Origin: Marsupella aquatica
Lineage: Eukaryota > Plantae > Marchantiophyta
Reading direction: 5' to 3'
DNA: 64,000 nucleotides
Assembly (NCBI GenBank): GCA_973895155.1
Contig: OZ316897.1
Coordinates: 23,163,455 to 23,227,454, forward strand
Shown: positions 43,298-64,000 of the stretch, one piece after another
Position numbering within the stretch: the first letter of the stretch is position 1
Layout of the letters: every line of letters begins with the position of its first letter
The notes under the pieces: generated by a model
What the model saw: the letters and a program-made list of their open reading frames with translations, nothing else
Database searches by the model: none
What the model was told of the DNA's origin: nothing
Program-made: the position numbers and the translations under genes

Positions 43298-45021
43298 AGA
43301 CCTTTTCCGTCGACAGTATTTGAAGGGACATAAGACCAAAGGGAAGAGAGCCCTTGGTTATGTAGCTCGCCTCCCTCTACTTGTAGTCGACCCTCCTCCT
43401 ATTACAGTATGAGATTAGTACTTTATTTTGTAGACTTTTACTTAGCTTTGACTATTTGACTATCCCTTAGTCAAAGTTGATTTTTATTTTACTTAGTTTA
43501 GACTTAGGAAATGAAGAGGTATGTCTCGTTATTCTCCTTAGCCCGTGGGCGATCTCATGTACTTATTGTGATACCAGTCTCATTTTGAGACAGAGTGGAT
43601 AGTTATTTGCATCTCCTCATTTTGGAGTTTTGTCTCTTGTACGTGTAATACAATTTTGCAAGGAAGATTTGTATGCCTTTAAATTTGATTACTTGTGCTA
43701 TGAGTCTACCCCTCCTTCGTATGGTAATGCATGTTGCAATTACCGTAAGAAGTAAAACCCATAAAAATATAGTTTGTGGAATGTATTAGAAGATCCGTTG
43801 GTCGGTGCCTAATCCAAACTACAATATTTGTTGTCGAGTTTTGTATTTACATGAAGAACTTATCTTTGGAAGATAAGTATTGCATGTAATCAAGAAAGAA
43901 AAATCTAGATATGTTAAGAAGTAGCGACATTCTTAATTCATGGATTTGAAGTACCATTGTGGTATACTGAATGTGCATTAGTTTTCCTTTGGAATTGCGC
44001 ATTGCTAAAAAAGGAAACATGTTGCCGATATTTTAATGACACACTACTATACACACAATCCAAAACGTATATTGGGTTTTGTGAGCATAGACACTTCTTA
44101 AACTTAGATTTATAATAGAAACCTAGAGAGCAGTTATAGCCAGGTTAGGTTTGACTTATCAACGTCTCAAACAATGCCATAGCTCTTTCTTAAGACATGG
44201 TAACGAAGTTAAATATTGCTAAACTATACCTCTAAAAGCTCTAAGATTCTATTATTCAGCAAATATCATTTTTGTTCTTATTTTATTAATTTCTTGTATT
44301 TTGTTTAAGATTCTATTTTTCTTATAGATGTTGAGTTCCATCTTTAAACCACTCAAAACACTTTAAAACATCTTTTCATCCCATTCTTGTTCTTCCAAGG
44401 GAACGAACACCGAGTTTTTAGCATATATTCGATGACATTTGCTTTTGATAGCATACAACCAATCCTAGACCCCTAAGCCTCACATAAGAGGATGAGGGAC
44501 GCCGATGCTCAGCATATTGATTACCGGGGTCCGGAACATTTGTATCCAGGAAGTCAATGCGTCCTAATCGCTCTTGCACTCAACGTTCAATAGGCTGCTG
44601 ACCATCAGTAGGAATGACTTCATGAAATGAGAACCGATCAAAAAATGCGCGCAAAGTATCACGGTTGTTAGTCCATAGTATATTTCTCTCCCCTGGACTA
44701 ATTGCCTCATCGTAAGGAAGAGCAAAACAATTCTGGAAAGTCAAGATTTTGGTGAAAGTGTTGCCACGAACGGACTCGAAGGAGCTCAAGTGACTCTCCA
44801 CAGGCCAAACTCTAGAAGGACCGAAGAAGGCAAGCATCTCCTCCAAAGACATGAGTTCCTTCCTCTCCATCTAATGGGAACTGTTAAACAAAATAGAGGC
44901 TAATCACAACACCAATGTTGTTGAAATGACCCGACTTCGAGAGAGCTTCTGCCTGAAAATGACTCGCAAGAGTGACCTAATGTAGAGTACAAGTCGACAA
45001 TCATTGGCATTGGTAACAAAG

Positions 45022-45346
45022 TGAGGTGCATCCCATGGGTCCCTAAACCCAAGAAACCCCCCTACACAAGCCGATTCCCGTAGGTTTCGCTCTCGGCGAG
45101 GCTGGTTTCGTGGCTTATCGGCATGGAACGCTGCTAACTCTCTTCTACTAATATTTTACACACATATACTGGACAGATCCTTCATTGGGTCATGAGATAA
45201 GTAGCCGACCTATTCTATGCCTTCCCTTGTCTTCCTCTTCTGGTCTCCCTTTAGGTATGTTTCGATTCCGCCATCGGAATGATCCCCAATTGGCTTGGGT
45301 TAGCCGCTAAGACCTCTCTCAGCTTGACACATCCAACTCTTACTAC
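45022..45346 (-). mobile_element. 3' end of an older LTR of the same family as 45347-50052, in opposite orientation
   Basis: Reverse complement aligns with ~49724-50052; similarity stops exactly where TGTGA begins at 45347. Confidence 0.8.
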
Positions 45347-45382
45347 TGTGATACCTAGCCAGGAATCACTCGGCTAGTTGAA

Positions 45383-46078
45383 GTGGAAATGGGAAGTGTA
45401 CCCAAGAAACACCTTAGTATAGTTACAGAAATAAGAAAATATAAACAATTAAAGGTGACTATGGAACCCGAGCCGAGGCCGGAAGTAAGGACGCCAGGGG
45501 AGAGAACACAATTAGGGTTAGGGCACGATAAATGCCGGCGGCTAGGGGTCACCAACGGGAGAGAAACGCCGAGGAGGAGAGGGGTAAGGACCGCTCGTGA
45601 AGAGTTGTGGCTCATTTGCAGGCACGAACTGGGCAGACGACTACGGGCGGTGAACTACTATCAGCTGCTTAAGCACGCACTTGGGGGGGGAGCAGATACC
45701 GACTATCAACTCGATAAGGGTATGAGCAACGTCAATCAAGCGGCACATTTTTGGGGATGCCTGTTCGAACGGGCAACTGAGTACATTGGGACTTACGAGG
45801 ACGAAGAATCAGAGAGAGCAGCTCGAGAACGGCAGGAGCTCGCTCGATTGTGGGAGTTGCAGAAAGTTGCCTTCTTAGGAGGAGAACTCATCAAGGCCGA
45901 ATTCTTGTGGACTCCTACTACCAATCAACTCGACGACCTTCTGTTTTGCGAAGACAGAGTCGTCGGCATCCGCGAAGCCATCAAACGCTGCAACGACCTA
46001 CACTGGGAGTTGAAGGTAGCACGGAGGGGTGAACAAAGGCAACCGTGCTCGGAGAGACATCCATGGCAGCCGAGATGA
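45383..46078 (+). CDS. LTR-encoded ORF1 (231 aa), homologous to the N-terminal domain of ORF 62817-60157
   Basis: AAHFW..ER..LFCEDRVVGIREAIKRCND aligns with AIRFW..ER..FFNGDKYIGFWEALLRLPD. Confidence 0.6.
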   Translation: MEMGSVPKKHLSIVTEIRKYKQLKVTMEPEPRPEVRTPGERTQLGLGHDKCRRLGVTNGRETPRRRGVRTAREELWLICRHELGRRLRAVNYYQLLKHALGGGADTDYQLDKGMSNVNQAAHFWGCLFERATEYIGTYEDEESERAARERQELARLWELQKVAFLGGELIKAEFLWTPTTNQLDDLLFCEDRVVGIREAIKRCNDLHWELKVARRGEQRQPCSERHPWQPR

Positions 46079-49000
46079 AGAGGAAGGGAATTAACAATGA
46101 CGAGGCCACCCCGGCAAAAAGAACGAGGTCGGCAGCACCAAAGAAACCAGCCGAACAGCAGAGTAGGAGGCAGAGAGAAGCCGAGGAGGAGGAGGTCGAC
46201 CCCATCAACGCCATTCCAACGAGAGATGACACCTGGAAAGGCTGGGCGGCGATCCTCCCCGAGGAGGTCCAATTACACTTTGCAAGAGAAGAAGATGCAT
46301 GCTTTACGGCTATGCAGACTCGGAAATATCAGGGCTTCATGGCCGGATCCGGCTTGGAAGCCTTCGTAAGGTTACCGTGGCTGAAGCCGGAGGTGCCGAA
46401 TTCAGACTTACTTGAATTCGTGGGATCATGGGAGTCCGAGACCAATTCCACAAGGGTGTATGGGAAGGAATTCTATCTTACTCCCCAGGTGATTGCCGAA
46501 GTATTTGGCTTGCCGATGGGCAATAAGACCAAGGTAGATACCAGGAAGACCTTGCCAGACACGGAGTTCAGGTCGTTTCCAGGGCCTTCAACAAAGAATG
46601 GTTTTTTCCGTAACACTTGCACCAACCCGCATATAGGAGAGATGATCGATTTCTTGCGGGTGACCATGCATTGCAACTGGCCGAGAGCAGAGATCGGCAA
46701 GGCACAGGTCTATCTGGTAGAGAGGCCAGACCCAAGCCGGGACTACAACGGTTACCTCCTCACTCAACTAAAGAAGATCTTGAAGGAGGAACAGCTGGTG
46801 ATCGGCAAGGGAAGCGTGTCCTGGTTGGGCTATCACATGCCGCTATTGTGCCGGTATGCCCGAAGTAAGACCTTTGCCCCGGTACTTCCCCTACAGGCAA
46901 GGGCACCAGAGGAGGTTTTGGAACAGAGGCCGGCAACAGAGAAACCTAAACCACCCGACAGTCCTACAATCGAGCAGGTATTTAGGCCAAGGACAGAGGA
47001 CTTGCCGATGCAGCAACCAGGCATGCAGAATCTATTGAAACTGCTGGAGAAAGAAAAGAGAACGGCTACGGCAACAACAACAACAATGGCAACGGCAACG
47101 ACAACAATACAGGACACTGCTCCAGAGGTAGGCCTAAACCGGCTTACAAGGGAAAACCCCTTTACTGGAGTCAAGGAGAGAAGGAGGCCGGAACACGAGC
47201 CGGGAGTCCGGATGTATGTAGGAGCCTCTAGTCCCGAAGCCGAAGAGAAGCAGGCCGTAGCTCCCGGCCCCGACAAGGAGAACAAGAGATCAACACGGAA
47301 GCCGGAAGAGGAACCAAGACCGGCAAGAGGTGAAGCCGTGTTCACAACAAAATCAGGAGAACAGCGGGAGAAGCCGGTAGTCCAAGCCGAGGAGGAGGCG
47401 GTGGAGGACTACAGCAATGATAACTCCGGCTACGGGTCGGATCATCATGTTCCAGGAGTAAGGACATGTGGCCGGTTTATCCCCACACTCCCAAGAGTAG
47501 TCCGAGGGGACCCGAGCCAGCAGAGCAGCCCCGAGTCTCCCCCGCCAGATGTCGCTCCCCCAAGCTTTGACGGCATAAAACAGACGGCGCAGGAATTTCA
47601 GGAGCGAATGAGGGAGGAAGAGGAGGCAGCCCTGGCTAGGGAGAAGGATTTACCAGGAGGAGAATGGCCAAAGAACATCAGGCGGCTTGCAGAAAAACGA
47701 AGCAACCCTCCGGCCACGATAGAGGAGATCCGCAAGGCGGCTTGGGAACAAAGGCCGCGGTGGATGATGCCGATGACTTCTACTTCCTCCACCTATGCTA
47801 AAAATAGAGCCATGGAGTACGGGGAGATGTGTGGAGAACTAGCGCTCAGCATCTTTGGGGAGGAGTTGGAGCAGGGACCCTTTTTCCAGAGGGAGATGTT
47901 GGAGAAGCGCCATTTAGAAGAAGCGGTGGCCTTGGAAAGAAGCAAGAAGGACGAGGTCATCCATCGGCTTAGGGAAAGGGAAGCCAAAATCGAGGACCTA
48001 AGGGCGGCCAAGAAAGCCCAAGATGAGCTGCGGATTAAGCGGCATGAGCTAAATATCATGCAGGGCCAGTTGGATACCGCACAGTATGATAATCGGATGA
48101 TCAAGAATCTATTGACGCGGACCCAAGGAGAGTTGGCCGATGCGATCAAGGAGCGGGAGAAGTGGAAGCGAGAGCTGAGGAATGCAGAGGAGGCCCACAT
48201 AACAGCCAACAACCGGGCCATGGCGGAGACCCAGAGAAGGGAAAGGGCGTTGAAGGGGGAGCTCGAGGTTATCCGTGGAGCCCTTAAGCAAAAGGAGGCT
48301 GAGTTAGGGAAATCCTATCAAGGGATTATTGCACTGCAGCAGGAACTTGCGTCCCTGATGGCCAGCTTCAAGGCCGACCTACGGGAGAAGGATGACCAGC
48401 TCGACCAGACTTATGCCAAGATGAATAAAATGGAGTCTGAGGTCGTAACGGAGCTCGACAAAGAGCTAAGAGAAACCCAGGAGGAGAGGGCTACCTTGAA
48501 GAAGGAATTGGAGGAAGCCCAAAGGGAGCTGGAGGAAGCCCAGAAAGAACTGGAGGAGGCGCGTAAGGACCTGGACGAAGTGCAGGAGGAGTTGGAGGAA
48601 AGCACGCGGAAGCTGGAGAACTTACAACGGCGAGCCGACAACCAAACGGAGCGGCTGAAGAAACAAGCCGCAGTAATTAAAGGCTTGGCTCCATCAGGCC
48701 CAACTCCAATTGGGGCAACCAAGTTACCAGGAGTGGTACTGGCCGAAGAACAAGCCGCGCCACTTGCACCAGTGCCGGAAGTAAGTGGGAAGGGGAAGGG
48801 ACCAGCTGCCGAACCAGAAAAGAAGAAGAAGCGGAAACCTTCAGGGTCAAGGAGTAATACGGCTCCACAGGCCGTGGTGACCCAGGAGGCAGACCCAGCA
48901 CCGACCCCAGGCAGGGTCACGGCAGAGGATCCAACTACCCTAGAAGCAGGGGATGACGAAGCCGTGGCTGATGCCGAAGCCGGTGCCGAGGCCAAAGCCG

Positions 49001-49134
49001 AAGGTGGACCCAGTCAGGCCGATGGAGAGTTGACTAAGTCCAGGGCAGGTAATCTGTCAAAGAACGAACCTACGGCAGTGGCTGAGGAGGAAGCGTTGGG
49101 GGCGTCCACTGAGGAACAGACACCGCTGCCATGA
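46045..49134 (+). CDS. LTR-encoded ORF2 (1029 aa): plant-transposon-like globular domain, low-complexity linker, long coiled coil, NLS-like KKKKRK
   Basis: Uninterrupted 3.1 kb ORF; LPW..EFV..LT..FGLP.G..SFP..NGF...C..EI..AQV shared with ORF 60403-62190; heptads KELEEAQRELEEAQKELEEA. Confidence 0.8.
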   Translation: MLGETSMAAEMKRKGINNDEATPAKRTRSAAPKKPAEQQSRRQREAEEEEVDPINAIPTRDDTWKGWAAILPEEVQLHFAREEDACFTAMQTRKYQGFMAGSGLEAFVRLPWLKPEVPNSDLLEFVGSWESETNSTRVYGKEFYLTPQVIAEVFGLPMGNKTKVDTRKTLPDTEFRSFPGPSTKNGFFRNTCTNPHIGEMIDFLRVTMHCNWPRAEIGKAQVYLVERPDPSRDYNGYLLTQLKKILKEEQLVIGKGSVSWLGYHMPLLCRYARSKTFAPVLPLQARAPEEVLEQRPATEKPKPPDSPTIEQVFRPRTEDLPMQQPGMQNLLKLLEKEKRTATATTTTMATATTTIQDTAPEVGLNRLTRENPFTGVKERRRPEHEPGVRMYVGASSPEAEEKQAVAPGPDKENKRSTRKPEEEPRPARGEAVFTTKSGEQREKPVVQAEEEAVEDYSNDNSGYGSDHHVPGVRTCGRFIPTLPRVVRGDPSQQSSPESPPPDVAPPSFDGIKQTAQEFQERMREEEEAALAREKDLPGGEWPKNIRRLAEKRSNPPATIEEIRKAAWEQRPRWMMPMTSTSSTYAKNRAMEYGEMCGELALSIFGEELEQGPFFQREMLEKRHLEEAVALERSKKDEVIHRLREREAKIEDLRAAKKAQDELRIKRHELNIMQGQLDTAQYDNRMIKNLLTRTQGELADAIKEREKWKRELRNAEEAHITANNRAMAETQRRERALKGELEVIRGALKQKEAELGKSYQGIIALQQELASLMASFKADLREKDDQLDQTYAKMNKMESEVVTELDKELRETQEERATLKKELEEAQRELEEAQKELEEARKDLDEVQEELEESTRKLENLQRRADNQTERLKKQAAVIKGLAPSGPTPIGATKLPGVVLAEEQAAPLAPVPEVSGKGKGPAAEPEKKKKRKPSGSRSNTAPQAVVTQEADPAPTPGRVTAEDPTTLEAGDDEAVADAEAGAEAKAEGGPSQADGELTKSRAGNLSKNEPTAVAEEEALGASTEEQTPLP

Positions 49135-50056
49135 CGATGGTGGAGGGCCGCTCCTTTCAAGGAGGGCGGACGTGGAGGGAGGAGGCGTGAGTGGGCAGGG
49201 CGGGCTCGGATCTCTAAGTTTAGGATTAGGATCAGGACCAGAAGGCGGCCCTGACACTTAGCTCAGTGGGATTGCGGTTCCACTGGTAAGAGCAACACTT
49301 GTACTCCTGCCTCGCTGTAGTTAGGTAGATTCAATTAGGTAGATTCAATTAGGTAGATTTGGCTTACGCTGCAAGGAATTAGGCGGATCCACGTCCAGGA
49401 TAAGTACCTGGGCAGCGGGGAGCTCAGGGCCTCTTCTTTAGCAAGTTTTTAGTTGCACCAGTCGGGCTGGGATCAAGTAGTAAGAGAAGCTCTCGGTTAG
49501 TCATACAGTGACCCTTGTGTATATTCATGTTTCCTCATGCCTAAGAGCTGAATAGAGTTGGCCTCACGGCTTAGTTCGCAGAGCTTGTGTATGAGATGTA
49601 CCGTTTGTATGGCAAGTGCATGGTATGACTCAGTCAGAAGGAGTCATTTTGCTATTTGTGTGTCGCATTAACTTGTGTGAAGAGTGCCCACATCAACTAA
49701 TAGATGAAGGAAAGTAAGTAAGGGAGTGAGAGTTGGATGTGTCGAGCTGAGAGAGGTCTTAGCGGCTTAACCAAGCCTATTGGGGATCATTCCGGCGACG
49801 GAATCCAAATATACCCAACCAGAAGGAGAGGAAGAGAAGGGAAGACCCAGATTAGGCCGGCTACATATCTCATGACCCAATGAAGGATCTGTCCAGTATA
49901 TGTGTGTAAAATGTTAATAGTAGTAGTAGAAGGAGGTTAGCAGCGTCCCATGCCGCTAAGCCGCGAAAACGGCCTCGTCGAGGATGAAACCCGCGGGAAT
50001 CGGCTTGTGCGGGGGGGTTTCTTGGGTTTGGGGAGCCATGGGGCGCACCACATTTT

Positions 50057-50075
50057 TGGCGCTAGATGGAGGGGG
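50057..50075 (+). promoter_or_regulatory. Primer binding site
   Basis: TGGCGCTAGATGGAGGGGG 4 nt after the LTR-terminal CA; TGG is the complement of tRNA 3' CCA; resembles Tat-type PBS. Confidence 0.7.
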
Positions 50076-50121
50076 CATTTCTTAAGCCGTGACATATGAA
50101 GTTAGGAAGGAAGCGTAGGTA

Positions 50122-50724
50122 ATGACTGAACCTACGCCGAGGGAGGAAAGAGCGATTCAACGGGAGAGAACTCGTCTGCAGCAACTCGCCGGGTGGCATG
50201 ATACACAGCGACTGAGAGGGGCAGAAAGAGCTAGTAGCTCCGTAACTGAAAGTGGCATCGAAGAAGACATACCAGAAGAAGGGTCGGTAAGGAGAAGTGA
50301 GTCTCCAACCGACATGGGGGAACCAGAGGCACGGCCAGACGAGAGGCCAGGGACCAAATTGAGCCAACGGTCACGTATTCATTACAAGGCCTTTCATGGA
50401 AGAGGAGATGAGGATCCGGACGAATGGTTGGATGACTTTGAAGGAACTGCTGCAGCAAATGGAGAATCGGCCATCAAGATGCAGATTCTTCCCGACCTAT
50501 TCAAAGGTGAGGCTAGGCCTTGGTACAGAGCCTTGGACGTGGAAGATCAAGCCATATGGCATACTTTCAGATCACTATTTGTCAAGGAGTTTCGACCCAT
50601 TGGAACTTCAGAGTTAGCAGTGCTGAAGTTGGGACGACTTTGGTTCAAGGAGAACAAATCCTTCAGGAAGTTCTTGCAATGCTTCCAAAAGCTGAGAATG
50701 CCCGAATGCACGCAAACAAGGTGA
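50122..50724 (+). pseudogene. gag: Truncated Ty3/Gypsy gag
   Basis: YKAFHGRGDEDPDEWLDDFE..FKGEARPWY..WHTFRSLFVKEF (retrotransposon gag signature); cut off at ~50700 by an unrelated LTR. Confidence 0.85.
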
Positions 50725-50735
50725 TGGACAACCAG

Positions 50736-52561
50736 GTACCCATAAACCAGTGACTCTTGACTGATTCCCGGCTTAGGGACTTCTAAGCCATTGCCCCACC
50801 ACTCTGCCATTCCACTCTCAGCAATCAGAGCTATGACAGTCCTCACCCAGCCCGCTTCAATGCACCCTGTACACCTCTCAGTGGCGCTGCTAGTCCCATC
50901 ATACACTTAGATTGCCTCACACACACACACATCCATGAGAGAAATGAGGCCTGAGAGGAAAACTCAATTAGATTCAACGATGTGCACAATACTTCACTGA
51001 GAACACTTGATCCGAACAATAGGCCCGAAGGCTGTCTACTCCAGATTGCAGCGTGCTTGCCCCGCAAGCCCCATGCTTGCCATGCAAGCTCAATCCTAAA
51101 CCTGAGCCCGGCTCACTCCAGATTGCGACGGCATATTGGACTCAAACCAATCCCGTACTTGCCTTGCAAACTCAATCCTGAACTCAACCTCCTTCATTGC
51201 ACTTCATTCTTGGGGGCACATACAGATCTCACACCTCCAATTCAGAACGTCAAGTTACGCATACATAGTTGACTCGACTTCAAAGCTGGTACCAGGCCTA
51301 ACGGCGATCTACCCCAGACTGCAATGAGGCCCGGCCTCACGCTTGCCCTGCAAGCTCCGCTCTGGCCATAGATCCCTTAGTGCTCTCCACCAGACAAAGG
51401 CCGGGACTCCCCATGGATCACGTAGCCTTGCCAGACTGAACTGTAAATGCTCCTCCTGCTGCCCCTCAATCAGTGTCTCAGCCTCCCTAATGTGCTCACC
51501 ACAAATCAAATTGACATCCTCCCCACAGTTTACAATCACCAATACATCACCTATCACCAAGGCTCTGTATCGGGGGAAAAGAACCCAGTTGTGCTACTCA
51601 CTAGAAAGAGCCACAATCCAGCTCGCAAACCTAGCAACCCGTTGCTGTGAAGCTTGGCTGATTACTCCCTGAGTAATAGCACAACCAAGCTCTCCCCAAC
51701 ACGCAGCGTCCAAGTCCAGCCTTGCTTGCACAGAGCTCCTCCCTGCTGCTCAGTCTAAGTGAGATCACACAACTGAAGTCCTCCCCCTATCTCTACCGGG
51801 GGGCTGCTCTATATACTCTCATACTGAGCCCAAATGGCTGGGTACTACGCTGTTGGAGCCCCATCCCAGCCCTAACAGAGCCGCCACTATCTCTAACTAC
51901 TGAACCCTAACTCGCAGCTTTATTTCTATCTCGAATTGGCTATGTACTTCGGATTTGGCCCTCCTCCATGGTTTTCGCGAGCTTACGCCTCCTCTCCCGA
52001 TTTCTGTATTCAACCATTTGCTGCGTGGATAGCAGCGTTGGAAGCGGCTTGAGCTCCTCTTTCCAACGAGGTCAATTATAGCCGATTTGGTCAAATACAC
52101 AGAGAGTTATGCCCCCGCAACCGAGAGGGGGTACTCACTGCTGCGCTAACCCGAGTTACATAGCTAACCCGAGTTCGGCTAACCTAGCTATCCTATCTAA
52201 CCCGAGTAGAGCTAACCCGTGGTCTCGGGTTAGGCCGCTACACGCTATCCGCTAACCTAGCCTAAGCTGAGCCCGAACCCGAGCTTACCTATGCTAACCT
52301 GAGCCTGAGTTTAGGCTAACCCGAGTTCAATCTAATCCGAACCTAGGTTAAGCCTAAGCTGAAGCTGTGCTGACCTAAGCTAAGCTGAAGCCGTGCTTAC
52401 CTTAGCTAAGCTGAAGCCGTGCTCACCTGAGCTAAGCTGAAGCCGTGCTTACCTGAGCTAAGCTGAAGCCGTGCTCACATAAGCTAAGCCGTGGTCGAGC
52501 TTGGGTTAACCCAAAACTGAAGCCGAATCCGCTAATTCCGGCCACAAGTTAACCCGTCACA
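50736..52561 (-). mobile_element. LTR-like repeat (family C) with ~26-bp tandem repeats at ~52350-52490
   Basis: Minus strand starts TGTGACGGG at 52561 (cf. TGTGACGCC of the other LTRs); GCTAAGCTGAAGCCGTGCTCACCTGA units; TATA-like GTATATAGAG near 51810; paralog at 29160-30650. Confidence 0.7.
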
Positions 52562-52627
52562 CTAATCAGGCCGTATCTCTCTTAATACACCTCCGTTTCC
52601 CGAGTGTTTTATATCGATTTTACTCGC

Positions 52628-55600
52628 CTAATTTATGAAGAGCGCTTAGGACATTCAGTACAAGGTAACCCGGATGGACAGTTATCATCACAACAATGGT
52701 GGGATTCCGTGGTAGCTCTACTATGTATTGGAAGAGTACCAAAATCTCTGCTTCGGTCCACTCCTTCTGTTGAAGTCGGCTGAAATCAACAATTGCAAGA
52801 GGGCATGTTGGAGATTGTTCTTCCAACGACTCTGGATCGACTGTCTTCATTAGGTTGTTACTAAAAAATGTGACCCACGGTTGGGTCCAAGAACTTGTCC
52901 CCCCACCAAACTTCTGACAGTAAATATCATCTAGACGCATCACCAATGTCATTGGCAATATCTCACTCTCCTTTGTATGATTAGACTTCAATAAATTTGT
53001 CAACCATACTTCACCAGCCGCTCTTCGGCACCTGTTCAACTCCGACTCGACACCTAACAATGGGAGGACCTCAATTACTTTAACCCAATCACTATCTGCT
53101 GGGAAGTTTTTTGGATCCTTCTTGAAGTAGTAATCTCCAATAAGAGACTTCAGTTTGATCAATATCTTCACCTCCTTTGCAAAGTCCTCCATTGCTGGAA
53201 CATCTGACTTATTTGTCGGATCCTTCTTCAATAAAACCTGACCTGACTTCACCTTGCTCAAAATTTTGGTCAAATCTCTATTTGAGATTTTACCATCAAA
53301 ACAATGAAACATTGCGACTGTTATTGCCTTTTCAGACCTTTTGTTTCCTTGTGTACCAGCTCCATCAGGAAGATTTCCATCAATCCACATCTGGCACACT
53401 AACTGCCATAACTCAAAAAGATCATTCTGGGCAAAAAGCAACCAGTATACATTTTTCAAGGCTTTTCTCCCCATGGTCATCCTTGCCAGTGCTAAATAAT
53501 CCTGCAATCAAAAATTGGGGGGAATGTTATGAGTTATCTAAATAAACCAAAAGTCACACTCTTGGACAGAGACCATCTCCATCCAAGTCAAAACCAAAAG
53601 TAGAATGAAGTAAAATCTCTAGAACGGACGGTCACACTCTTGGACAGAGACCATCTCCATCCAAGTCAAAACCAAAAGTAGAATGAAGTAAAATCTTTGA
53701 AACGGACGGTCTCACTCTTGGACAGAGACCATCTCCATCCAAGTCATAACCAAAAGTAGAAGGAAGAGAAATCTCTGGAATGGACGATGACACTCTTGGA
53801 CAGAGATCATCTCCATCCAAGTCATAACCAAAAGTAGAAGGAAGAGAAATCTCTAGAATGGACGATCACACTCTTGGACAGAGACCATCTCCATCCAAGT
53901 CATAACCAAAAGTAGAAGGAAGAGAAATCTCTAGAATGGACGATCACACTCTTGGACAGAGACCATCTCCATCCAAGTCATAACCAGAAATATATTGAAC
54001 TAAAATCAGTGTAACGGACGGTCACACTCTTGGACAGAGACCATCTCTGTCCAAACAAGAAAAGTGTTTCTCACCTGAAATTTTTGATTCTCTTGGGCGT
54101 TTGACTTGTTGTCCCCGTGCTTTGGCTTTCTTGGTCCTCCGCATTCAAGGAATTGTTTCCTTGCATGAACAATTGTATCTTTGAAGCACGATTGAAACAC
54201 CATCATCGAATTGATGGCATTTGATCTCATTGAGTGCTCAACCAATATAGCCGATGGTGTAAGGTCTGACAATAATCTAGACTTCCTGTATTTTAACTTT
54301 TTTGCCAACACTGTGAGCTTGGCATCAGTTTTGGCCCATTCGAGAACCCACTTGGCCGCCCTAGCTGAATGTTGCCCACTGATGGCAAAGAAACCAATCT
54401 CGCCTTTCTTCACTCCTGCAAGAAAGTCTTTGCGGTCGTTCTCCGTGCTGTCAAAATGGAGCAACTTTCTAAGCTTCAGACTATAAGGAAGCAGGTCCGT
54501 GACGTGAGGTTCATGTCCGGGGTTTTTGACCATGGATTTGGCTATGTGCTTCACATGGGTACTACTGAGCATCCTGTAACATAATCTTGCAGGTGCAGGC
54601 ACAATTTTCTCCACTGGAATAGAAAACAGTTCATTTATCCCAAAAGTATAGTACTGCTCTATTCTCTGGAGAACATCATTTCCTTCTAAGACCTTCTTCT
54701 CCTCAGGGGCATCAAGTTTGTCTCCCTCATCTTCTGGGAGCATCTGTACGTCCGCAGGGGTTGACCGCAAAAGAGACTTGTCAGTTTTCTGTTTCTTCGC
54801 TACTGGCTTCTTCTCGGGTTCCTTCGGCAATGTCTCAATTTTCTCGCGACCCTTCCTCTCTCTTAGTCTTCGCTTCCCTACCACTTGTTTGGTGCTTGTC
54901 CCAGCCGTTGTTCCTGCAGTCCTTGTTGTTGTCTCCTGAGATATTTTTCTAGGTTTGGGAACTTCTTTGGGAACTTCTTTGTTAACAACTACTGGAAGCT
55001 CGTTCACCACTACTGGTGCAACATTTGTAGGCTTGGGTAATGATTCTACCCACTTTTTTGCATTGTCCATCGCAAACTCCTCTGCAAATGCAATTTGCTT
55101 GTCAAGGCAAACACCTGATTCCGAAGATAGGAATCCTGCCTTGTCAAGCAAATTATTTAAAATCCATGTCACCGGAAATGTATAATTCCCTTGGTGTTTA
55201 TGGATATTCAGCTTCACATATTGGAACCCATACATGATGTCAAGTGGAAGAATCCCCTTCACTCCAACAATCACCTTTTGAGTTGAATACAACTTAGGGA
55301 AAAAGCCCATTGCCATCACGCCAAGTTCTCCAGCAGCAGACCACTCAACATTGAACTCTGAAGAATACGCCTTTGATGGTAGATGTAGCTTAACCCATCG
55401 TATCCTTTCATGGAGCTCAAGAATGATGGAAACAAACCCTCTTCCTTCAATTCCAATGAAGACTACAGGTCTGAGTACAAGAGTCTCTTGATCTTCTGTT
55501 CTGACCTTTATGCACAAAATGGGATCCCGTCTCTCTGACGTGCTAAGGAAATCAAAATCAACTCTAGAGAACTCAAGGCCCCAACGAAAATCTGGTTTTC

Positions 55601-55691
55601 TCTGCTCCAACAAGACTCCCTCGGAGCAATCTGATTCTAAAATTGCTGGTTTCAATCCATTTAGATCGCTCCCTGCAATAGTCCCATCCAT
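52628..55691 (-). CDS. ParB/Sulfiredoxin-like domain protein. Exons 55691-54075 and 53501-52628; 3' part probably lost to the LTR stack
   Basis: SIPVEKIVPAP..YRMLSSTHVKHIAKSM..FFAISGQHSARAAK matches the ParB N-terminal fold pattern. Phase-0 GT-AG intron 54074-53502 joins KFQ|DYLA. Possible AG|GCGAGT donor at 52627; otherwise stop at 52620-52622. Confidence 0.65.
53555..54052. repeat. 78-bp tandem repeat (7 palindromic cores) filling the intron of the ParB-like gene
   Basis: Units begin at 53555, 53633, 53711, 53789, 53867, 53945 and 54023; core TTGGACAGAGA-CCA-TCTC(CA/TG)TCCAA. Confidence 0.92.
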
Positions 55692-55749
55692 GCATATTAG
55701 TTTGGAAAATCATAATTTGTAATCGACAAAGATGAGGTTCTCTCACAGT

Positions 55750-56262
55750 TTGGACAGAGATGATCCCTATCCAATTGGACAGGGATGATCTCTATCCTCT
55801 ACTTGGATAGGGATGATCTCTGTCCAATTTGTAACAAAGATAATCTTTGTTCGATCAAAGGATTTTGACAATCTTTATTAGGAATTGGACAGGGATGATC
55901 TCTATCCTCTACTTGGATAGAGATGATCTCTGTCCAATTCCTAATAAAGATCATCTTTGTTCGATCAGAGGATACTGACGATCTTTATTAGGAATTGGAC
56001 AGGGATCATCTCTATCCTCTACTTGGATAGGGATCATCTCTATCCAATTCCAAATTAAGATCCTCAGCATCCTCTGATAGAACAGTTTTGATCCTCTGGT
56101 TGGACATCCTCTATCGTCATTTTGGAAATAGATGATCCCTATCCAATTGGACAGGGATGATCTCTGTCCTCAGTTTGGACAGAGATCATCTCTATCCAAT
56201 TCCTAATAAAGATCACTATCTTCTACTTGGACTCTACTTGGACAGGGATGATCTCTGTCCAC
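55750..56262. repeat. Cluster of ~11 palindromic GGA(C/T)AG(G/A)GAT-N-ATC(C/T)CT(G/A)TCC sites upstream of the ParB-like gene
   Basis: Repeated TTGGACAGGGATGATCTCTATCC, often in pairs within a ~110-bp higher-order unit. Confidence 0.88.
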
Positions 56263-57311
56263 TGCACAAATATTCAACTTGTTACCGAGATACTTACTTG
56301 GATTGAGCAATTGGAAGGCTCTGGAATCCTCGAGGGCCGTGTCTACCACATCCTCAATGGAGGAGAGGTCTATCTCCTCTGTTGGCTCAACGACCAAAGA
56401 CACTTGAATAGGTCTAGATGGATCCATCTTGTGACACGTGGTCGTATGGACACGTGGAGGATCATAGAGCGTTAGATCTAGGGCAATTAACGTGGCGGCT
56501 AGGGCAGAAACTCTAGTGTGAAGGCGGAGGTGGAGTGGGGCCTAAGGAGACTGGAAGCGAATGAGGCGGAGGAGTGGAGGAGCGGAGGCGCAGGAGCGAA
56601 GAAGAGGAGCGAAGAAGAGGAGGAGGGAAGAAGAATGAGGCCCAAGTGGGACCTCTTGCCTCCTTTACCCCCCCCCACACCAAGGCGAGGCAAGGCCAAC
56701 TCAACACGTGGGAGGCCGAGCTGCAAACCCTAAACGCAAGGCTGCGTAAATTGTGCCGCCCGACTTGGTTGTGTGGCGTGGATGACCTAATCCACTCGAC
56801 CCTAAACTCCGCCGCTGCTTAAGGCTGATCACGCATCGCCTTATCCGTAAGAGCGATCTTGAATGGTATAAGATACTTGGGCTGCTCCGGTTGGTCCTCA
56901 TTTGGTATTTTCATGTCTAGATTTTCATTCAGTGTCTCAACCAGGTCCGTTCATTACGGAGCCCCATTGAGCCACTCTTGTTTTCTAGACAGAACATCTA
57001 GTTTTAATTTCTTCCACACCCCTGAAGCATTTAGTTTACCAGCTTACTGAGAACTACCCCTTCAACAAAGTATTTTATTACTTGGTTTGACAACATAAAC
57101 TAAGTGAGTTTTGTGTTCAAGAATCATTTCCAGTACAGGTAACTTTCAACTTAATTATAGAATATTCCATTGGTATCAAATTTAGGAATTGTATATCTAA
57201 GTTACTTAAGGTTGGGGTATCCAGCCCAACTCACGATTGGGATCATCTCAATCGAACCTTTCTTTGGTCAAACATTAAATTAGTGTGTAGAGGTTAATTG
57301 TCCGTACAAGG

Positions 57312-58280
57312 GTCTGTCCACCGTTTGGATAGGGATGATCTCTGTGCACCGTTTGGATGGGGATGATCTCTGTCCACCGTTTGGATAGAGATGATCCCTG
57401 TCCGGCTTTTGGATAGAGATGATCCCTATCCACCATTTGGATAAGGATGATCCCTGTCCACCGTTTGGATAGCGATGATCCCTGTCCACCATTTGGATAG
57501 CGATGATCCCTGTCCACCATTTGGATAGGGATGATCCCTGTCCGCCATTTGGATAGAGATGATCCCTGTCCACCGTTTGGATCGAGATGATCCCTGTCCA
57601 CCGTTTGGATAGCGATGATCCCTGTCCCCCGTTTGGATAGAGATGATCCCTGTCCACCATTTGGATGGGGATGATCCCCGTCCGCCATTTGGATAGAGAT
57701 GATCCCTGTCCACCGTTTGGATGGGGATGATCATGTTCGGCTTTTGGATAGAGATGATCCCTGTCCACCATTTGGATGGGGATGATCCCTGTCCGCCATT
57801 GGATAGGGATGATCCCTGTCTGCCATTTGGATAGGGATGATCATTGTCCGCCGTTTGAGGTATTTGCTTTATGGGACCCCAATATGAAAGGTTTTACTTT
57901 CAGATAGGACCGCTGAGTGATCCTAAGTGATCCGGACCTTGAATCATCCATGTCTATTGTTTGGACAGTGATAGACCCTATCCGCCATTTGGACAGGGAT
58001 CAGCTGTGTCCACCATTTGGACAATGACAGACCCTATCCACCGTTCTGATAGGGATCATCTCTGTCCGGATTTTGGATAGGGATGATCCCTGTCCGCCGT
58101 TTATAGGGATCATCTATGTCCATTGTTTGGACAGTGATAGAACCTATCTGCCGTCTGGACAGGGATCATCCCTACCGACCGTCTAAATAGGGATCAGGGA
58201 TCAGGGATCAGGGATCTTAGGGCTAGATAAGGATTGTTTAGGGACCTATTATTTTGCTTGATGGGGATGATCCCTATTTG
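57312..58280. repeat. ~28-bp tandem array (~19 units to 57850, then ~9 diverged units) of the same palindrome
   Basis: TTTGGATAG(G/A/C)GATGATCCCTGTCCACC(G/A) repeated head-to-tail. Confidence 0.93.
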
Positions 58281-58383
58281 CGCACTGTCCTTGGATGGGG
58301 TTCACACCTATCTGCTTCCTAGTTGGGACCATTGTTAACTAATACCTTACATTTCAAATTGTGCAGGTGAACACGTTGTAGGA

Positions 58384-61300
58384 ATGACCGGAATATTTTT
58401 GAGAGGAGACAATGTGATATTGACAATTGGTGGTTACGATGTTGCAAGCGGGACAGTTCAAAAAATCAACCCGCAAGATAGTGTTCAAAAGATATTGTTG
58501 AGAGAGAATCGAATGGGCGTTCTCATTGAGAAAGTTTTTGACCGAACCACAAAACTACCATTTCCAATGCCTCGGGCAGAAAACCTTTTTGATGCCATTG
58601 ATTCTTGCGTTATTTGGGATTTGTCTTGCGCATATCTATCAACGATAACAAATTCTCAAAAACGCATTAGTGTAGGTAGTTGTTCAAATCGACCGGAGAG
58701 TAATTTGGAAAAAAATCCAATTGTAGAGGAGGACTCATCGACCACTCTGAGGCAAGGGGATGAGGTTGAAATGTTCATCTTTGGGTGTTGTGTAGCCCTT
58801 GGAGTTGTTTTCAATACAAATCCAATGGAAAGATGTCACAACATTTTACTTGGTGAATCACGGATCAGTGTGAGGGTCACTGATGTCATTCATGGGAGTA
58901 GGGTTTTACCTTACAAACACAACAGGGTTGAAACAATTGACGAAGCAAAAGACTCATGGGTTCTCTGGGATGTGGCAGATGTCCGAAGTAGAAAGAGTTT
59001 CTCAAAGAAGGATGCGGGCGATGATATCAACATAGAGCGGAGTTTTGTTGCGGAGTCTCCCTCAGCTGAAATTTCTAAAACTAATTGTGACTATTTCCAA
59101 CGGTCAAATTGGATGTCAGAGTTGGTCGAACTATACATCGGTTCAGATCGAACCAATAGGGTTGCCACGGGGACCATCACTGTGCCTCAAGAAACGGCGG
59201 TGGTTGACGATGAAATCCTTGGTGAGGACCATGTAGGGATTGCTGTGAAAGATGTGGTGTGTCACGTCGTAGGCTTCCGCCTTAACTCAGACTTCAGCTT
59301 AGACGGGCACATCCCTCGTAAATCTGAGGGTTCGGGCAGGAAGGGAAGCACGTAATGCACCTTATTCTCGTAAACTAGCGCTAAGTGCGCATACTGCTAA
59401 ATACGGACACCTCCTAGGTATGGTTTGTGTTCCGCCGCCGGAACGTACCTTAGTCGATAGCAGGATCGACCCCGGCTTAAGGGCTTCTAAGCCTTCGTGC
59501 TGTCCGCCTTCAATCCGGATTCGATGATACAGGTCCTCAACCCGTGCTCGCAACCACTTACCTGCAGGCTGCACCTTGTGCACGTCTCGGGTAGTGCGTT
59601 CGGCCTGGCGCTGCCACCCATATACGAGAAACCCACACACATATGCGCACACATGCATACAATCTCGATTTACACGAAGGAAAATGATGGGAAAGGATTT
59701 TACTACAAAGGGAACATATGCGTACACTTAGTTGACACGACAGCCCTGGAATGCACAGGTTCAAGGCCGAGGGTGCACACTACAACGGAGCCCGGCTCCG
59801 CACTCGCCCGACGAGCTTAGTCCTATCCCCTCCCCTTGGTACTCTGTCATTCCCAGAGGTCGGGACTCCCCGCATGTCCCGCGGATGTCCGACTCTGAAA
59901 CTAAAAACCCCCCCTGCCTCTACCGAGGGGTGCACTAAATACTAAGAGCCGAGGGACGGGGTGTCCTCTCGCCGAAGATTCGCTGACTAAGGTCCTAACT
60001 AAGCTGACAGTCAGGCCGGAAAACGGCTGTGTCTTATTAGAAGATCCTAATCTACGCAGGCTGGACAGCAGGGCAGCGCTGCTGTACCTAAGGCAGGTGC
60101 CTGTCCCAAGAGCCTGACTAAGCCAATCCTAATCCTAATCTATTCCTACTCTGCCGCTAATGCCTGGCACGCTTGCCAGAGCCACCCGAATGGGAACGGC
60201 CATCCCGCTGCCTTCCAAGCCTGTCATTGTCCGCTTTGAGGAGCTGGACCTGGTCTAGCAGAGATTCGTTCTCTCGCCTCGCCGCGTCCGTCTCCTCTAC
60301 TGCCTCCTGACATGCCTCCTCCAGCTGCTGGGCGTCGCTCGTCAGTTTACCCGCCAGCTGGTCCTGCTTCTCGTCCTCGGTTTGGAGCCGCGCCATCTCG
60401 GCCTACAGCGTGGCTATCTCCGTCGCATCCCGCTGGGCTCGCTCCTCGGCCTCCTCCAGGTCTTTCTGCCAGGTGACAGCTTGTTTCTTCAAATTATCAA
60501 TCTGGTTCCGGAGTCGTGTAATCTCGGCCTCGTTCCCAGCTTTGGCCTGTTCGGCTAGGGCGGTAAGAGCGTACGCCTTTGCTAATAACTCATCGGCGGC
60601 TGCAACCTTGGGTCGTAGTTGCAGAAGCTCAGCCTCTTGAGCCGCCACTTCGTTCTTTAGGTACACGGACTCCACCCGGTACCGCTCTATCCTCTGAAGG
60701 GCCTCCGACTGGGCCCGACCTGCCTTTACGGCGGCAACCAACTCCTGATTGAAGAAACAGGCTACCTTCCGGGCCATGAACTCCCCGGTATCTCGGGCAA
60801 TTTGATGAGAGAAATCTCCCAGAAGCCCGTTCAGAAACGTACCCTGTACGAAGAGTTCCGGGTGGTCCAAGTTGTGCCTGTCCGGATTTGGGCACGGGCA
60901 AACATCAACACGCGCAGGGGCCGAGGCAGTGACGTCCAGCCCTGGGGACATAACGTTGGAAGGGGCTGGAGTGTCCTCCTGCAGCGATGTCCGGTTCTCC
61001 GGAATTGCCACCGGCGGGTCCTTGGGAGACCCGGGTTCGGGTAAGACCTCTGCCGTACCAACTTCTGTACTTAGCCCGGCTAGTTGGGTCGCATCAACGG
61101 TTGCGACGACCGACCCCTCCGGCGCCTCCTCGGTTACGATTACAACTATTTGTGGAGGTGGGGTGGGTGAAGCTGGCATGTCCACTGGACTTCGGGCCTC
61201 GGGTTGGGGCCGTCTCTCCAATGCCGGAAAAACCCACCTAGCTGGGACCAGCTTTGTAACGTTGATGCGGGGAAGGGTTCGTCGATCAAACCGGGCGTAC

Positions 61301-64000
61301 CACTCAAGAATGATTTCGATGTGGCTAGCAAAATACGCCTTCCCGCCAATGTACAGCATCTTCCTTCGTCGCTCCATCTCTTCATGGAATTTCTTAGCGA
61401 AGTACGACGCCCATTTCCTAGGTCGATAGTTCTCGACCTGGATAACCTGGGCGGCGGAGATCTCCCCCCGGGGTTCCATCATGTGGAGAGCGTACCTCTG
61501 GAACTCCAGCCGCTCAGCTATCTCGGGCATGAGGCAGGTCCTCATCACGAACCCGTTGTCTACTGATCCCTCTGAGGGAAAACTTGAAGATTGGTACTTG
61601 GCCCCCTTGCCCCCGGGAGCCCGTGATTCGACTCGATGGTCACCTTCGGGTAACCCGAAGATCATCTTGAGCCGTTCTTCTGTGAGGGACATATTCCTTC
61701 CCCGCAGCCGAGTCTGTTGACGTACGTCGTCATAATTCTTGACGAATTCTGTCATGTCCTCCCCGTAGTACCTGCAAGTGTTCCAGGGGAGAGAGGTGAG
61801 GTGCTCAAATCCCTGAGTCTTCAGGTACACCGCATGCTTGGGATGGAGGATGTTGCTATGAACGTTTTCTCCCATGCGATGCATCGTCACCTTGGCTACG
61901 GCTACCGTGGCCAACGGTAACCCGGACGCAGTGGCGGATTCCTTCCTCTTCTTTCCCCGTGACTGACTCGGGGAAGGTGATACTTCCCCATCCTCCCGAT
62001 CGGGCCTGGGGAGTGCCACTACGGTTGGTAACGGGCCCGGGGCGGCCACGATCACTATGTTGTCTGCTGGGGCCGCTCTTGGGGTCAGAGCAGGGGGTGG
62101 GGACGATATAGTGTCGGCCCCCCGAGCGCTTGTTCCTCTGGGCCGCCTGGTCAAGGGTGGGGTAGCCTCGTCGTCATCGCTAAGATCCACAGCGTTGATG
62201 ACGGAGCGTACCTGTGCTGGCTAGGTGATAGGTGGTGGGGTTTGGCTAGGCTGCGGCTGAGGCTGAGGCTAAAGCTGAAGCTGAGGTTGAGGCTGGGGTT
62301 GCATGGGCACGGGTACGGGTACGGGTACGGGCCCGACTGAGTTGGTCATGTTGGTTGATGGCCGAGTTCCCATGAAGCTCTGCAAGTGCTGGTAGAAGTT
62401 CTCCGAAGCGAGTGCGGACGCCCTTGTCGAACGGTTGGTACTGGACTCGCCGTTAATGACAGCCCGAACCTGGGCAGGGATGTGGTCGAAGTGATGTCGC
62501 TGCAGGTCGATTGTACCCGGGATATTGAAGACCTCGTCCGGAAGCCGAAGCAATGCTTCCCAGAACCCGATATATTTGTCTCCGTTGAAGAAGTACCCAG
62601 ATACCTCAGCTGGTCGGTAAAGCTCGCTCTGAGACGGGTAGTCAAAGTTAAGGACGTAGTGGTGTCGTCCTGCTAGGCGGATGGCTCTCTCGTATTCGCG
62701 TTCGATCTCGTATCGGCGCGGGTTGGCGTGTTTCAATGAATCGGCCAAGTGCCTTCCGGTAGATAGGAACTGCGTCCAGAATCGAATGGCCGAGCTGGAG
62801 AGGATCGTGTGCGACATTCAGAGGAGATAGTAGTGGCGACCTAGAGAGAACGAGAGAGTTGGGGTCGAAGCTGGCGCGCGGACTGATGGACTGGTGCACT
62901 ACAAAGGGTTGGCTCCCCTTTTATACTTTGAGGGCTTGTCAATCCCCGACGTCTCCTCGACGCCCATAGGTTGAACCGCTCACGCTTGTGGTGTACCGGC
63001 CACTCCGTCGGTCTGAGTCAGCGTGCGTCAGTGGCCGCTTCCTTGAGTTCGTTATACGGACCCGAGGGAGGGGCCCCTCCACGCTCGTAATCCGGGTGTG
63101 CGAATAGCGACCCGCCGCCAGCCTGAACCTGAAGTCCCCCTTATTGCCTAATGATGTCCTACCCCTAATGATTACCTAAATACTGTCGTTATGCTAATAA
63201 TAGCGGCCTAAGACCCACCTAACGCGCATGCCGAGCGCAGTTAGACTGAATCACTCATTAACCGCCGTACCGGCGGCGTCACATGGTGGAATCACAATAC
63301 TTTCCCAATTTCCATAGGGGAGTAATTACTTTGGTTCGGTGGTGGATTGATTCAACAAAACTACTTGCAAACGGGAAATTTTTGTCGGACATTTTGGTTG
63401 AAGGTTCAGAGAGGATGGAGACGGTGGATAGGGATGATCTCTATCCAAATGTAAATGATAGGGGAATGCCGCGCACAAGGCCATACAATTTCAACAAGAG
63501 GACTCATGTAGATCCGATTGAAAAGAAGAGAAGGTTGTTGGAAACCAAAGCAGTTTCAAAAACAACGGAAGCTTCGATTGATGAAATTAAAAGAGAGAAT
63601 TGTTGCAAGCAGAAATGTTGTCTGACTATGCCAAGAGAAGACATAGACGATATCCGGATAGAATTTCACGGGATGTCTAGCGAGTCAAAAACATCACACA
63701 TTTTCAACCTCTTCCACTACAGAGAAGATGATGTTCGTGATAAGGGGCAACATGTTCTCAAGGGTATGGTCGTATGTAGACATGCATTTGCAATCATCCA
63801 TGGCTTTAGCCACACGAAATATTATGATTACAAAAGGAGATATGTGGAGGGTTGCAAAATTGGGTTCCATGGAAACACGGGCTCCATGAAAACAAGGTCA
63901 AATACCTTGCATGCACGAGCTCTGTTGGAGGATTTTTTGACTCGAAATGCAGAGCCCATGCCTCATATACCTTATGCTGGGGCTCATGGGACAAACTCCA
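58384..64000 (+). CDS. DNA transposase-like gene (three Tnp1/En/Spm-like beta domains + Sola-like N-terminal region), interrupted by the solo LTR at 59260-63283; runs off the window
   Basis: Removing the LTR and one TSD restores the frame (..KDVV|ESQYF..), open to 64000. Motifs CCKQKCC, VCRHAFAIIHGFS, HGNTG, ARALLEDFLTRNAEPMP; three VA.G..LG....V.V..V repeats; acceptor at 58366. Confidence 0.6.
60157..62817 (-). pseudogene. LTR-encoded gene, 887 codons in one frame with three TAG stops
   Basis: ORFs 62269-62817, 60403-62190 and 60157-60396 are in one frame; stops at 62269, 62221 and 60403 lie in Gln-compatible contexts (CAG>TAG); homologous to ORFs 45383-49134. Confidence 0.8.
62918..62925 (-). 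promoter_or_regulatory. TATA box of the LTR-internal gene
   Basis: TATAAAAG ~100 nt upstream of the ATG at 62817; conserved in the copy at ~23879-23886. Confidence 0.55.

Follow-up and report, generated by a model that had tools for sequence, protein, structure and literature searches.

A candidate solo LTR carrying an accessory gene of predicted VANC/PMD-like fold in the liverwort Marsupella aquatica

In the analyzed window, a 64,000-bp stretch of the Marsupella aquatica genome (contig OZ316897.1), a 4024-bp TG..CA unit (59260–63283, sense on the minus strand) carries a long accessory gene, which raises the question of what kind of element this unit represents. Solo-LTR formation usually removes the genes of a retrotransposon; a gene located in the LTR itself escapes this removal and is doubled in each full copy. 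We consider it slightly favored, with a probability of about 55%, that the unit is a solo LTR of a large Athila/Tat-type (OTA) Ty3/gypsy element, the LTR holding an accessory gene with a VANC/PMD fold. The function of extra ORFs in plant retrotransposons is described as open (PMC7264820, PMC6317226), and PMC5418596 still calls it "fully open" whether PMD arose in the host or within Gypsy elements. A retrotransposon protein of this fold, maintained by selection in bryophytes, would bear both on the function of extra ORFs and on the origin of PMD/VANC.

The unit was flanked on both sides by TGGTG (59255–59259 and 63284–63288, plus strand), in agreement with the first-pass annotation, which had reported TG..CA ends and an exact 5-bp target site duplication (TSD). 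Such a TSD was found for one of the 255 TG..CA pairs near the edges of the unit; since 0.25 exact matches are expected by chance, the TSD would be weak as the sole evidence. It was backed by a rejoined reading frame, by empty sites and by a left end common to the family. Excision of the unit together with one TSD copy restored 544 stop-free codons of the target frame. Joints corresponding to the empty site were present in three of the four public sequencing runs, and contigs with differing flanks departed at 59259/59260 in all four. The left end was shared by many copies of this high-copy family, and the right end was also found in a second copy within the window, ending at 24245. This second copy (23300–24245, minus strand) is truncated and 69% identical; it has the TGTGACG end, the TATA and the N-terminal codons seen in the 4024-bp unit, and the 5′ non-coding parts of the two share 73% identity.

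The insertion had been described as a clean interruption of a host ORF. The clean interruption stands, as the frame rejoins over the 544 codons; the attribution to the host does not. The interrupted ORF (58339–59259 and 63289 to the window end, i.e., within 58339–64000, plus strand) was multicopy in the sequencing runs and matched the Pfam family Transposase_23 (CACTA TNP1/En-Spm) with an E-value of 3.3e-4 and 20.9 bits, just under the cutoff of 21. By its sequence, it is probably a gene of a multicopy CACTA-type transposon rather than an ordinary host gene.

The unit consists of a U3-like 5′ non-coding part (62818–63283, minus strand), the gene, and an R/U5-like 3′ non-coding part of 897 bp with CGTGACA at its end (59260–60156, minus strand). 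The TATA box noted earlier was located as TATAAA on the minus strand (62925–62920), 358 bp from the unit end, and was kept in the second copy; a second TATA was not found in the 3′ part. Neither gag nor pol was detected in the unit by Pfam, as previously claimed, nor was a transposase; the window also contained no pol belonging to the target family or to the sister unit described below. The secondary structure at the 3′ end was ordinary (z −0.02), and an Rfam search of 44000–64000 gave nothing close to any cutoff. No terminal repeat, direct or inverted, exceeded 6/7 bp: of 100 shuffles, 35 and 49, respectively, scored as high as these repeats did (22 and 21), which bears out the reported absence of terminal direct repeats.

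Mutator elements make TSDs of 9–11 bp. A non-autonomous TG..CA DNA transposon (Mutator/VANDAL-like or Ginger-like) with a VANC-type gene, mobilized by a transposase encoded elsewhere, would nevertheless be consistent with the fact that no gag-pol was tied to the target family, and VANC does occur in Mutator-like VANDAL elements, as described in PMC5735166. The TSD observed here, however, was 5 bp long, a search up to 8 nt from the ends gave no 6–11-bp duplication, and the terminal inverted repeat amounted to just 6/7 bp.

The accessory gene had been described as an 887-codon single-frame gene (60157–62817, minus strand, read from 62817 to 60157). This description holds for the family and fails for the copy itself, in which three codons within the frame, 183, 199, and 805, are TAG stops (62271–62269, 62223–62221, and 60405–60403, minus strand, respectively). 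An intact gene in this copy was therefore rejected, and the copy is regarded as a pseudogene. At each of the three positions, the stop was absent from 97.5–100% of the sequencing depth (runs X1 and X2); thus, the stops are nearly private to this copy and the family frame is open. The dN/dS ratio between the gene and the second copy, a check proposed together with the original claim, was 0.17 (bootstrap 0–0.34; 126 codons) and not near 1. Judging from these comparisons, the accessory ORF is conserved and under purifying selection.

In total, 67 relatives of the accessory protein were found, and all 11 of those named to species came from liverwort. One full-length relative (P0070, 906 aa) matched all three domains and had the same three-part layout. 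A word-based search with the single accessory protein yielded no homologue among 725 candidates, nor did a word-based search among proteins of 1587–4530 aa; the profile-based search returned just two, both already known. In the search for genomic context, viral, metagenome, and genome contigs gave no usable locus for the target family, and the viral-contig scan produced one 16-residue chance match. The sequencing runs listed as containing the family included no RNA run, a result that is silent on expression.

The first-pass annotation further proposed that the gene lies within the LTR and so survives in the solo form. Its location in the LTR is rather likely, on two indirect lines—sequencing depth and the sister unit; with its gene broken, this copy is no proof that genes in solo LTRs stay active. 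Median depth over the ORF was 247k (X1) and 274k (X2), compared with 116–205k over the termini, although summed depth is a rough guide. Depth over the ORF was thus not below that of the termini, which counts against short LTRs flanking an internal ORF, as these would deepen the termini.

The sister, a TG..CA unit of 5031 bp (45022–50052, plus strand), is probably the 5′ LTR of a truncated element. It contains a homologous accessory ORF of 1033 codons (46033–49134, plus strand), which had 29% identity to the accessory protein over 224 aa (E 2e-21) and matched the profile at iE 2.3e-48 with the window sequences left out of the profile. Four nucleotides past its CA end lies a PBS-like site (50057–50074, plus strand), putatively of the plant tRNA-Asn type although look-ups gave no confirming tRNA, followed by a gag ORF (50119–50724, plus strand; interrupted by another repeat at ~50736) with a Pfam match to Retrotrans_gag (E 4.5e-6, 27.2 bits versus a cutoff of 24.1). 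The order at this junction is CA-TTTT-TGG..-gag, with the accessory ORF upstream of the PBS-like site and sense to gag, an arrangement that speaks for a gene within the LTR. The layout may not hold for the 4024-bp unit, because the proteins share 29% identity and the non-coding parts showed no significant DNA similarity. A PBS beside the target family's own CA end was not legible (mixed consensus, with 1–5 contigs per run among the loose ends listed). As for the DNA-transposon alternative, the sister bears inverted repeats of 330 bp in its favor; against it, exactly 4 nt separate the end of the sister from a PBS-like site, which gag follows, and the sister has no meaningful TSD. Altogether, we regard a DNA transposon as quite improbable.

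A recombined or deleted element, composed of a 5′ LTR part, an internal Athila-type sense ORF, and a 3′ LTR part, would place the gene only seemingly within an LTR. Athila ORF-1 is internal, 3′, and sense in 166 of 168 cases among the matches listed (PMC6317226), no pair of LTRs enclosing gag-pol was observed, and a distant homologue of the central domain at 41644–41976 has no recognized LTR ends in its surroundings. Yet the two non-coding ends of the unit share no direct repeat (paired divergent LTRs within it were rejected on this ground), and its interior contains no direct repeat, common PBS motif, or well-placed PPT-like run able to split it. Depth over the unit was also high and fairly even, with few internal joints among those listed, and the sister ORF precedes its PBS-like site. 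We therefore consider a recombined element improbable and retain the solo LTR with its own gene as the preferred reading.

Three regions were distinguished in the accessory protein. The N-terminal helical domain of ~126 aa (62440–62817, minus strand; pLDDT 80) is conserved in relatives; it had no clear fold match, the best Z of 5.3 lying inside the background, a result that does not show a new fold. The central globular domain (61200–61920, minus strand; pLDDT 89) is predicted to have a VANC21/PMD-like fold: its model aligned with VANC21 (PDB 9LNK) at Z 8.5 and rmsd 4.3 over 214 of 240 residues, with 10% identity. VANC21 was the best of 48,161 chains in the VIA comparison, the runner-up having Z 2.5. 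In Foldseek, the best match was VANC21-DNA (probability 0.99, TM 0.50, E 0.015), with runners-up at TM ≤ 0.17 among the matches listed. We assign the VANC/DUF1985 fold to the modeled domain with moderate confidence, as a match of moderate strength at 10% identity, with an rmsd of 4.3 and an E-value that exceeds 0.001. The C-terminal region (60208–60720, minus strand) is a predicted coiled coil, with weak matches to coiled-coil Pfam families and 71% hydrophobic residues at a/d positions in the best heptad frame.

At the sequence level, links to known families were weak. Neither the accessory protein (P0001) nor its scanned relatives reached the cutoff of any Pfam family, including PMD, DUF1985, Athila ORF-1, and Transposase_32; sub-cutoff clan leads among relatives were Transposase_32 (3/50) and DUF1985 (1/32), and the Atlas rows (ATHILA 0.79, Transposase_32 0.78) serve as a lead only. 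A PDB sequence search gave coiled-coil noise alone and no VANC21 match, and the viral structure library contained no convincing match.

OTA elements have LTRs of up to ~5 kb, 5-bp TSDs, and extra ORFs of the PMD/Athila-ORF1 type (PMC6317226). The extra ORFs described include Athila ORF-1 (PF03078), the PMD of Ogre (PF10536), and TRP28 of Retand (PF04195) (PMC6317226, PMC7264820, PMC11963269), and a tRNA-Asn PBS is given for 12% of Athila and 15% of TatII elements (PMC6317226). The unit resembles this group in the large element and multi-kb LTR proposed for it, its 5-bp TSD, an accessory ORF combining a globular domain with a coiled coil, and the weak links of the protein to the same domain group. 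A non-Met PBS would be a further likeness, here of the sister's PBS-like site, if its putative tRNA-Asn type holds. In contrast, OTA ORFs are internal, in most cases located after pol and ahead of the 3′ LTR, and are frequently antisense, while the gene described here lies between the TG and CA of the repeat.

Genes in U3 are familiar from MMTV sag and lentiviral nef. The LTRs of Cassandra, Helenus, and Ajax contain 5S/tRNA-like sequences, as described in PMC10886601. In all these cases, as proposed here, the gene is present in both LTRs and retained by solo LTRs; however, what they carry are immune modulators of retroviruses or small sequences resembling RNA genes, whereas our case would be an 880-aa chromatin-type protein of a plant retrotransposon.

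Arabidopsis VANC21 of VANDAL21 (PDB 9LNJ/9LNK) is likewise transposon-encoded and has a coiled coil, in addition to the likeness in the predicted central fold. VANDAL, however, is a Mutator-like DNA transposon, whereas a 5-bp TSD, TG..CA ends, and no transposase were found in our unit, and the accessory protein has an extra N-terminal domain without a fold match. VANC targets form tandem motif arrays (PMC5735166), unlike the non-coding parts of the unit, in which no self-target motif stood out (best 6-mer n = 7, P 0.045 uncorrected for 16 tests). According to PMC13547354, VANC is confined to dicots and descends from MAIN-like genes. The PMD proteins MAIN, MAIL1, and MAIL2 and the Gypsy PMD-A are reported to resemble VANC DUF1985 in structure; PMD-A clades are Gypsy-encoded, and PMD is described for angiosperms (PMC5418596; bioRxiv 2024.09.27.615353). 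The accessory protein differs from PMD in having no PF10536 match; the two are compared here on the basis of published descriptions.

Basic residues outnumber acidic ones in the central domain (36 K+R versus 26 D+E), and the protein has basic NLS-like runs. An env-like membrane protein was rejected, as there was no transmembrane segment (best 19-residue hydropathy 1.46). A DNA-binding chromatin protein is somewhat probable; a VANC-style anti-silencer specifically is a tentative assignment. A role as a particle chaperone has been proposed for Athila ORF1. The gene could lie in the LTR and encode a general transcription/chromatin adaptor or an oligomeric chaperone of the retrotransposon particle in place of a sequence-specific anti-silencer. 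Consistent with this are the missing self-target motif array in the non-coding parts, the first description of the fold relatives MAIN/MAIL1 as silencing factors (PMC5418596) and the later one as Polycomb antagonists (bioRxiv 2024.09.27.615353), and the coiled-coil oligomerization predicted for both the Athila domain and VANC (PMC13547354). However, among solved structures the model matched just one, an anti-silencer in complex with DNA, and the basic domain, the NLS-like runs, and the lack of a transmembrane segment also speak against an adaptor or chaperone, which we hold to be unlikely.

For the solo LTR with its accessory gene, the following course is proposed. A complete element would have been integrated by integrase; its 4-kb LTRs would then have recombined with each other, leaving 59260–63283. 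Transcription would start ~30 nt past the TATA, and each LTR, solo or paired, could yield accessory mRNA; a promoter at ~360 bp would leave ~3.6 kb of the 4-kb LTR for R-U5, which is mechanistically awkward. The N-terminal helical domain, the VANC-like domain, and the coiled coil may assemble into an oligomer in the nucleus, which would bind the DNA of elements, most likely those of its own family, and oppose silencing in trans, keeping copies transcribable. The copy at 59260–63283 would later have lost its coding capacity through the three stops. That bryophyte Ty3 elements moved a VANC/PMD-fold anti-silencing gene into multi-kb LTRs, with solo LTRs supplying the protein in trans, is a doubtful generalization at present. 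If true, every solo LTR would be self-contained, with its own promoter and gene and probably also target sites, and would go on acting once the host has removed gag-pol, and the retrotransposon-borne VANC/PMD fold would be placed far beyond flowering plants.

The terminal inverted repeats of the sister (45022–45344 and 49725–50052, ~330 bp, 83%) are reminiscent of DNA transposons. A TSD around the sister was rejected, with just 3–4-bp matches at chance level. A recognizable LTR or known domain to its left was likewise rejected: this region had no Pfam match and contained one nearly open frame. The upstream ORF of the sister (45359–46078) had no BLAST match and is at best a weak homologue of the N-terminal domain (iE 8e-4).

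The unit at 59260-63283 (4024 bp, sense on the minus strand) has TG..CA ends and the sequence TGGTG on either side, as the first-pass annotation had described when it reported an exact 5-bp target-site duplication (TSD). It was the only one of 255 TG..CA pairs near its edges with an exact 5-bp duplication; 0.25 were expected by chance, so support beyond the TSD was required. In silico deletion of the unit and one TGGTG restored a stop-free frame of 544 codons. Among four public sequencing runs whose contigs were aligned to the unit, joints of the empty site were found in three (X1, X2, and X5), and the departure point 59259/59260 was common to contigs with differing flanks in all four. The other end was shared with a truncated second copy at ~23300-24245, 69% identical. 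Median depth of the unit relative to its flank was 28x in X1 and 4x in X2, aligned depth being summed contig depth and not a copy number. The unit was present, whole or in part, in 7 of the 10 listed runs (five studies, five organisms), one of them with a small share only; the run with the best match may come from the source of the window itself. It is a real, young-looking, high-copy insertion.

The claim that it cleanly interrupts a host ORF held for the interruption but not for the host gene: the restored frame had a borderline match to CACTA Transposase_23 and was multicopy in the runs, which indicates a nested insertion into another transposon with no host-gene knockout. Upstream of this CACTA-like ORF, the region 52620-58200 contained minus-strand transposon-like ORFs and two arrays, a 78-bp one and a 28-bp one with scattered palindromic units; the arrays are probably subterminal repeats of that DNA transposon.

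On the minus strand, the unit consists of a 5' non-coding part of 466 bp with TATAAA 358 bp in, the accessory ORF (62817-60157), and a 3' non-coding part of 897 bp. The TATA box noted at first pass is also kept in the second copy, and the reported absence of terminal direct repeats was borne out: 35 of 100 shuffles matched the direct score of the two non-coding ends. No significant inverted repeat was found between these ends (49 of 100 shuffles scored as high), and none of seven common primer-binding site (PBS) motifs was found inside the unit. Median depth in X1 and X2 was 247k and 274k over the ORF and 116-205k at the termini, possibly under-counted there because non-coding DNA diverges faster; the ORF was thus not lower, which is the opposite of short LTRs flanking an internal gene. 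Next to the family's own CA end no PBS was readable in the mixed contig consensus (1-5 contigs per run). The unit is probably a solo LTR with the entire accessory gene inside; most likely, a full element of the Athila/Tat type of Ty3/gypsy retrotransposons (OTA) integrated, and LTR-LTR recombination then left one LTR.

The best, although indirect, evidence that the gene family sits between the LTR start and the PBS, sense to gag, is a sister unit at 45022-50052 (5031 bp, plus strand, TG..CA ends). Its 1033-codon ORF was homologous to the central domain of the accessory protein (29% over 224 aa, E 2e-21). Its CA end was followed by TTTT, a TGG-starting PBS-like site at 50057, which we take to be of the tRNA-Asn type, and an ORF matching Retrotrans_gag above the cutoff. 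No meaningful TSD was found around the sister unit, as expected for the 5' LTR of an element later cut. The gag ORF was broken at ~50736 by a 1.5-kb repeat, present as two 89%-identical copies in opposite orientation (29162-30649 and 50736-52215). The sister unit also had terminal inverted repeats of ~330 bp (45022-45344 and 49725-50052, 83% alike), unusual in an LTR and absent from the family of the solo LTR; non-coding DNA of the two units showed no significant similarity.

Since the repeat contains promoter, ORF, and 3' end, every LTR would be its own transcription unit. Either an Athila-type 3' sense ORF may have been taken up into U3, or R/U5 may have taken up a 5' ORF. The presence of just one TATA, close to the start, speaks for a transcript that runs through the ORF as far as the PBS, which would cost a very long strong-stop DNA. 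OTA elements have LTRs to ~5 kb and extra ORFs that are assigned to one side of the polyprotein, 5' or 3', with the plant mobile domain (PMD) of Ogre mostly 3' antisense and Athila ORF-1 3' sense (PMC6317226). Extra ORFs are located in the internal region (PMC7264820, PMC11963269), and Tat elements of liverworts, mosses, and hornworts are described by pol domains in PMC10508981 and PMC13468544. The accessory gene works like an OTA extra ORF; the window contains no pol of its family, and its element is a candidate OTA. Searches of openly accessible literature turned up no report of a PMD/VANC-type gene within a plant LTR and no earlier report of this bryophyte family.

A profile of both window domains, searched against 1.84 billion representative proteins, yielded 67 relatives; of the 30 looked up, 19 had no organism label, and the other 11 were unnamed proteins from Calypogeia fissa, a liverwort, which makes a bryophyte the probable host. 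The relative P0070 (906 aa) was 31, 38, and 29% identical in the N-terminal domain, central domain, and coiled-coil C-terminal region, respectively. No Pfam family was found at cutoff for the accessory protein or the relatives scanned; weak sub-cutoff matches were to Transposase_32 (3/50 relatives) and DUF1985 (1/32), and the Atlas clusters ATHILA (0.79) and Transposase_32 (0.78) are leads only. Two C. fissa pairs of N-domain and central-domain proteins, P0081/P0019 (CAM6101869/70) and P0080/P0082 (CAM6101879/80), were 98-99% identical and 8 accessions apart, with their order reversed, on contigs listed with equal length; either an inverted duplication or the two LTRs of a single element could account for them.

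Across 126 N-terminal codons compared with the second copy, dN/dS was 0.17, not near 1 (bootstrap 0-0.34, dS near saturation, one pair only); at the sequence level, the accessory gene is kept by selection. The 887-codon frame, described at first as a single-frame gene, has three internal stops in this copy. Each stop was missing from 97.5-100% of aligned depth at its site (X1, X2), which points to recent damage to this copy. Of 762 differences, 40 were listed; among these, 29 lay inside the unit and 23 of the 29 were C-to-T (either strand), 15 of the 23 in CG or CHG context.

The central domain was modelled with a pLDDT of 89, and its best PDB match was VANC21, the anti-silencing protein of Arabidopsis VANDAL21, on DNA (Foldseek probability 0.99, TM 0.50, E 0.015), at 10% identity and with no sequence-level PDB match. 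VIA gave Z 8.4-8.5 over 214 aligned residues at rmsd 4.3, against Z 2.1-2.5 for the next match, with re-alignment and an unbiased search of 48,161 chains agreeing. The N-terminal domain (pLDDT 80) had no clear fold match; the protein has basic runs and a heptad pattern, and no transmembrane segment was found in it. The accessory protein is predicted to share the VANC/PMD fold, and the modelled central domain suggests a DNA-binding chromatin protein. VANC is akin to MAIN/PMD in structure and is called dicot-specific (PMC13547354, bioRxiv 2024.09.27.615353); PMD-A clades are Gypsy-encoded in angiosperms (PMC5418596). The non-coding parts of the VANDAL21 element carry arrays of a 9-bp motif to which VANC21 binds, and VANC21 removes methylation (PMC5735166). 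The accessory protein may work likewise, but it is no VANDAL/VANC member. No significant motif array was found in the non-coding DNA of the solo LTR (best word P 0.045 before correction, 16 tests), which leaves VANC-style anti-silencing a tentative minority reading. TTAGG occurred on the sense strand of non-coding DNA 10 times in this LTR and 8 times in the sister unit, and was absent from the 5' part of the second copy.

The second copy, probably shortened by deletion, adjoins residues at 23052-23300 (minus strand) that are presumably of a Copia-type RNase H. A third, decayed copy of the gene family at 7810-8764 (plus strand) comprised the N-domain and the start of the central domain and showed no recognisable LTR ends; a remote central-domain homologue (HHalign probability 92%) followed by a proline-rich frame was found at 41506-42894 (plus strand). 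The window also contained what we take to be an intronless PPR gene with a DYW end (35241-37532, minus strand) and exons presumably of a methionine S-methyltransferase-like gene (4362-6102, plus strand).
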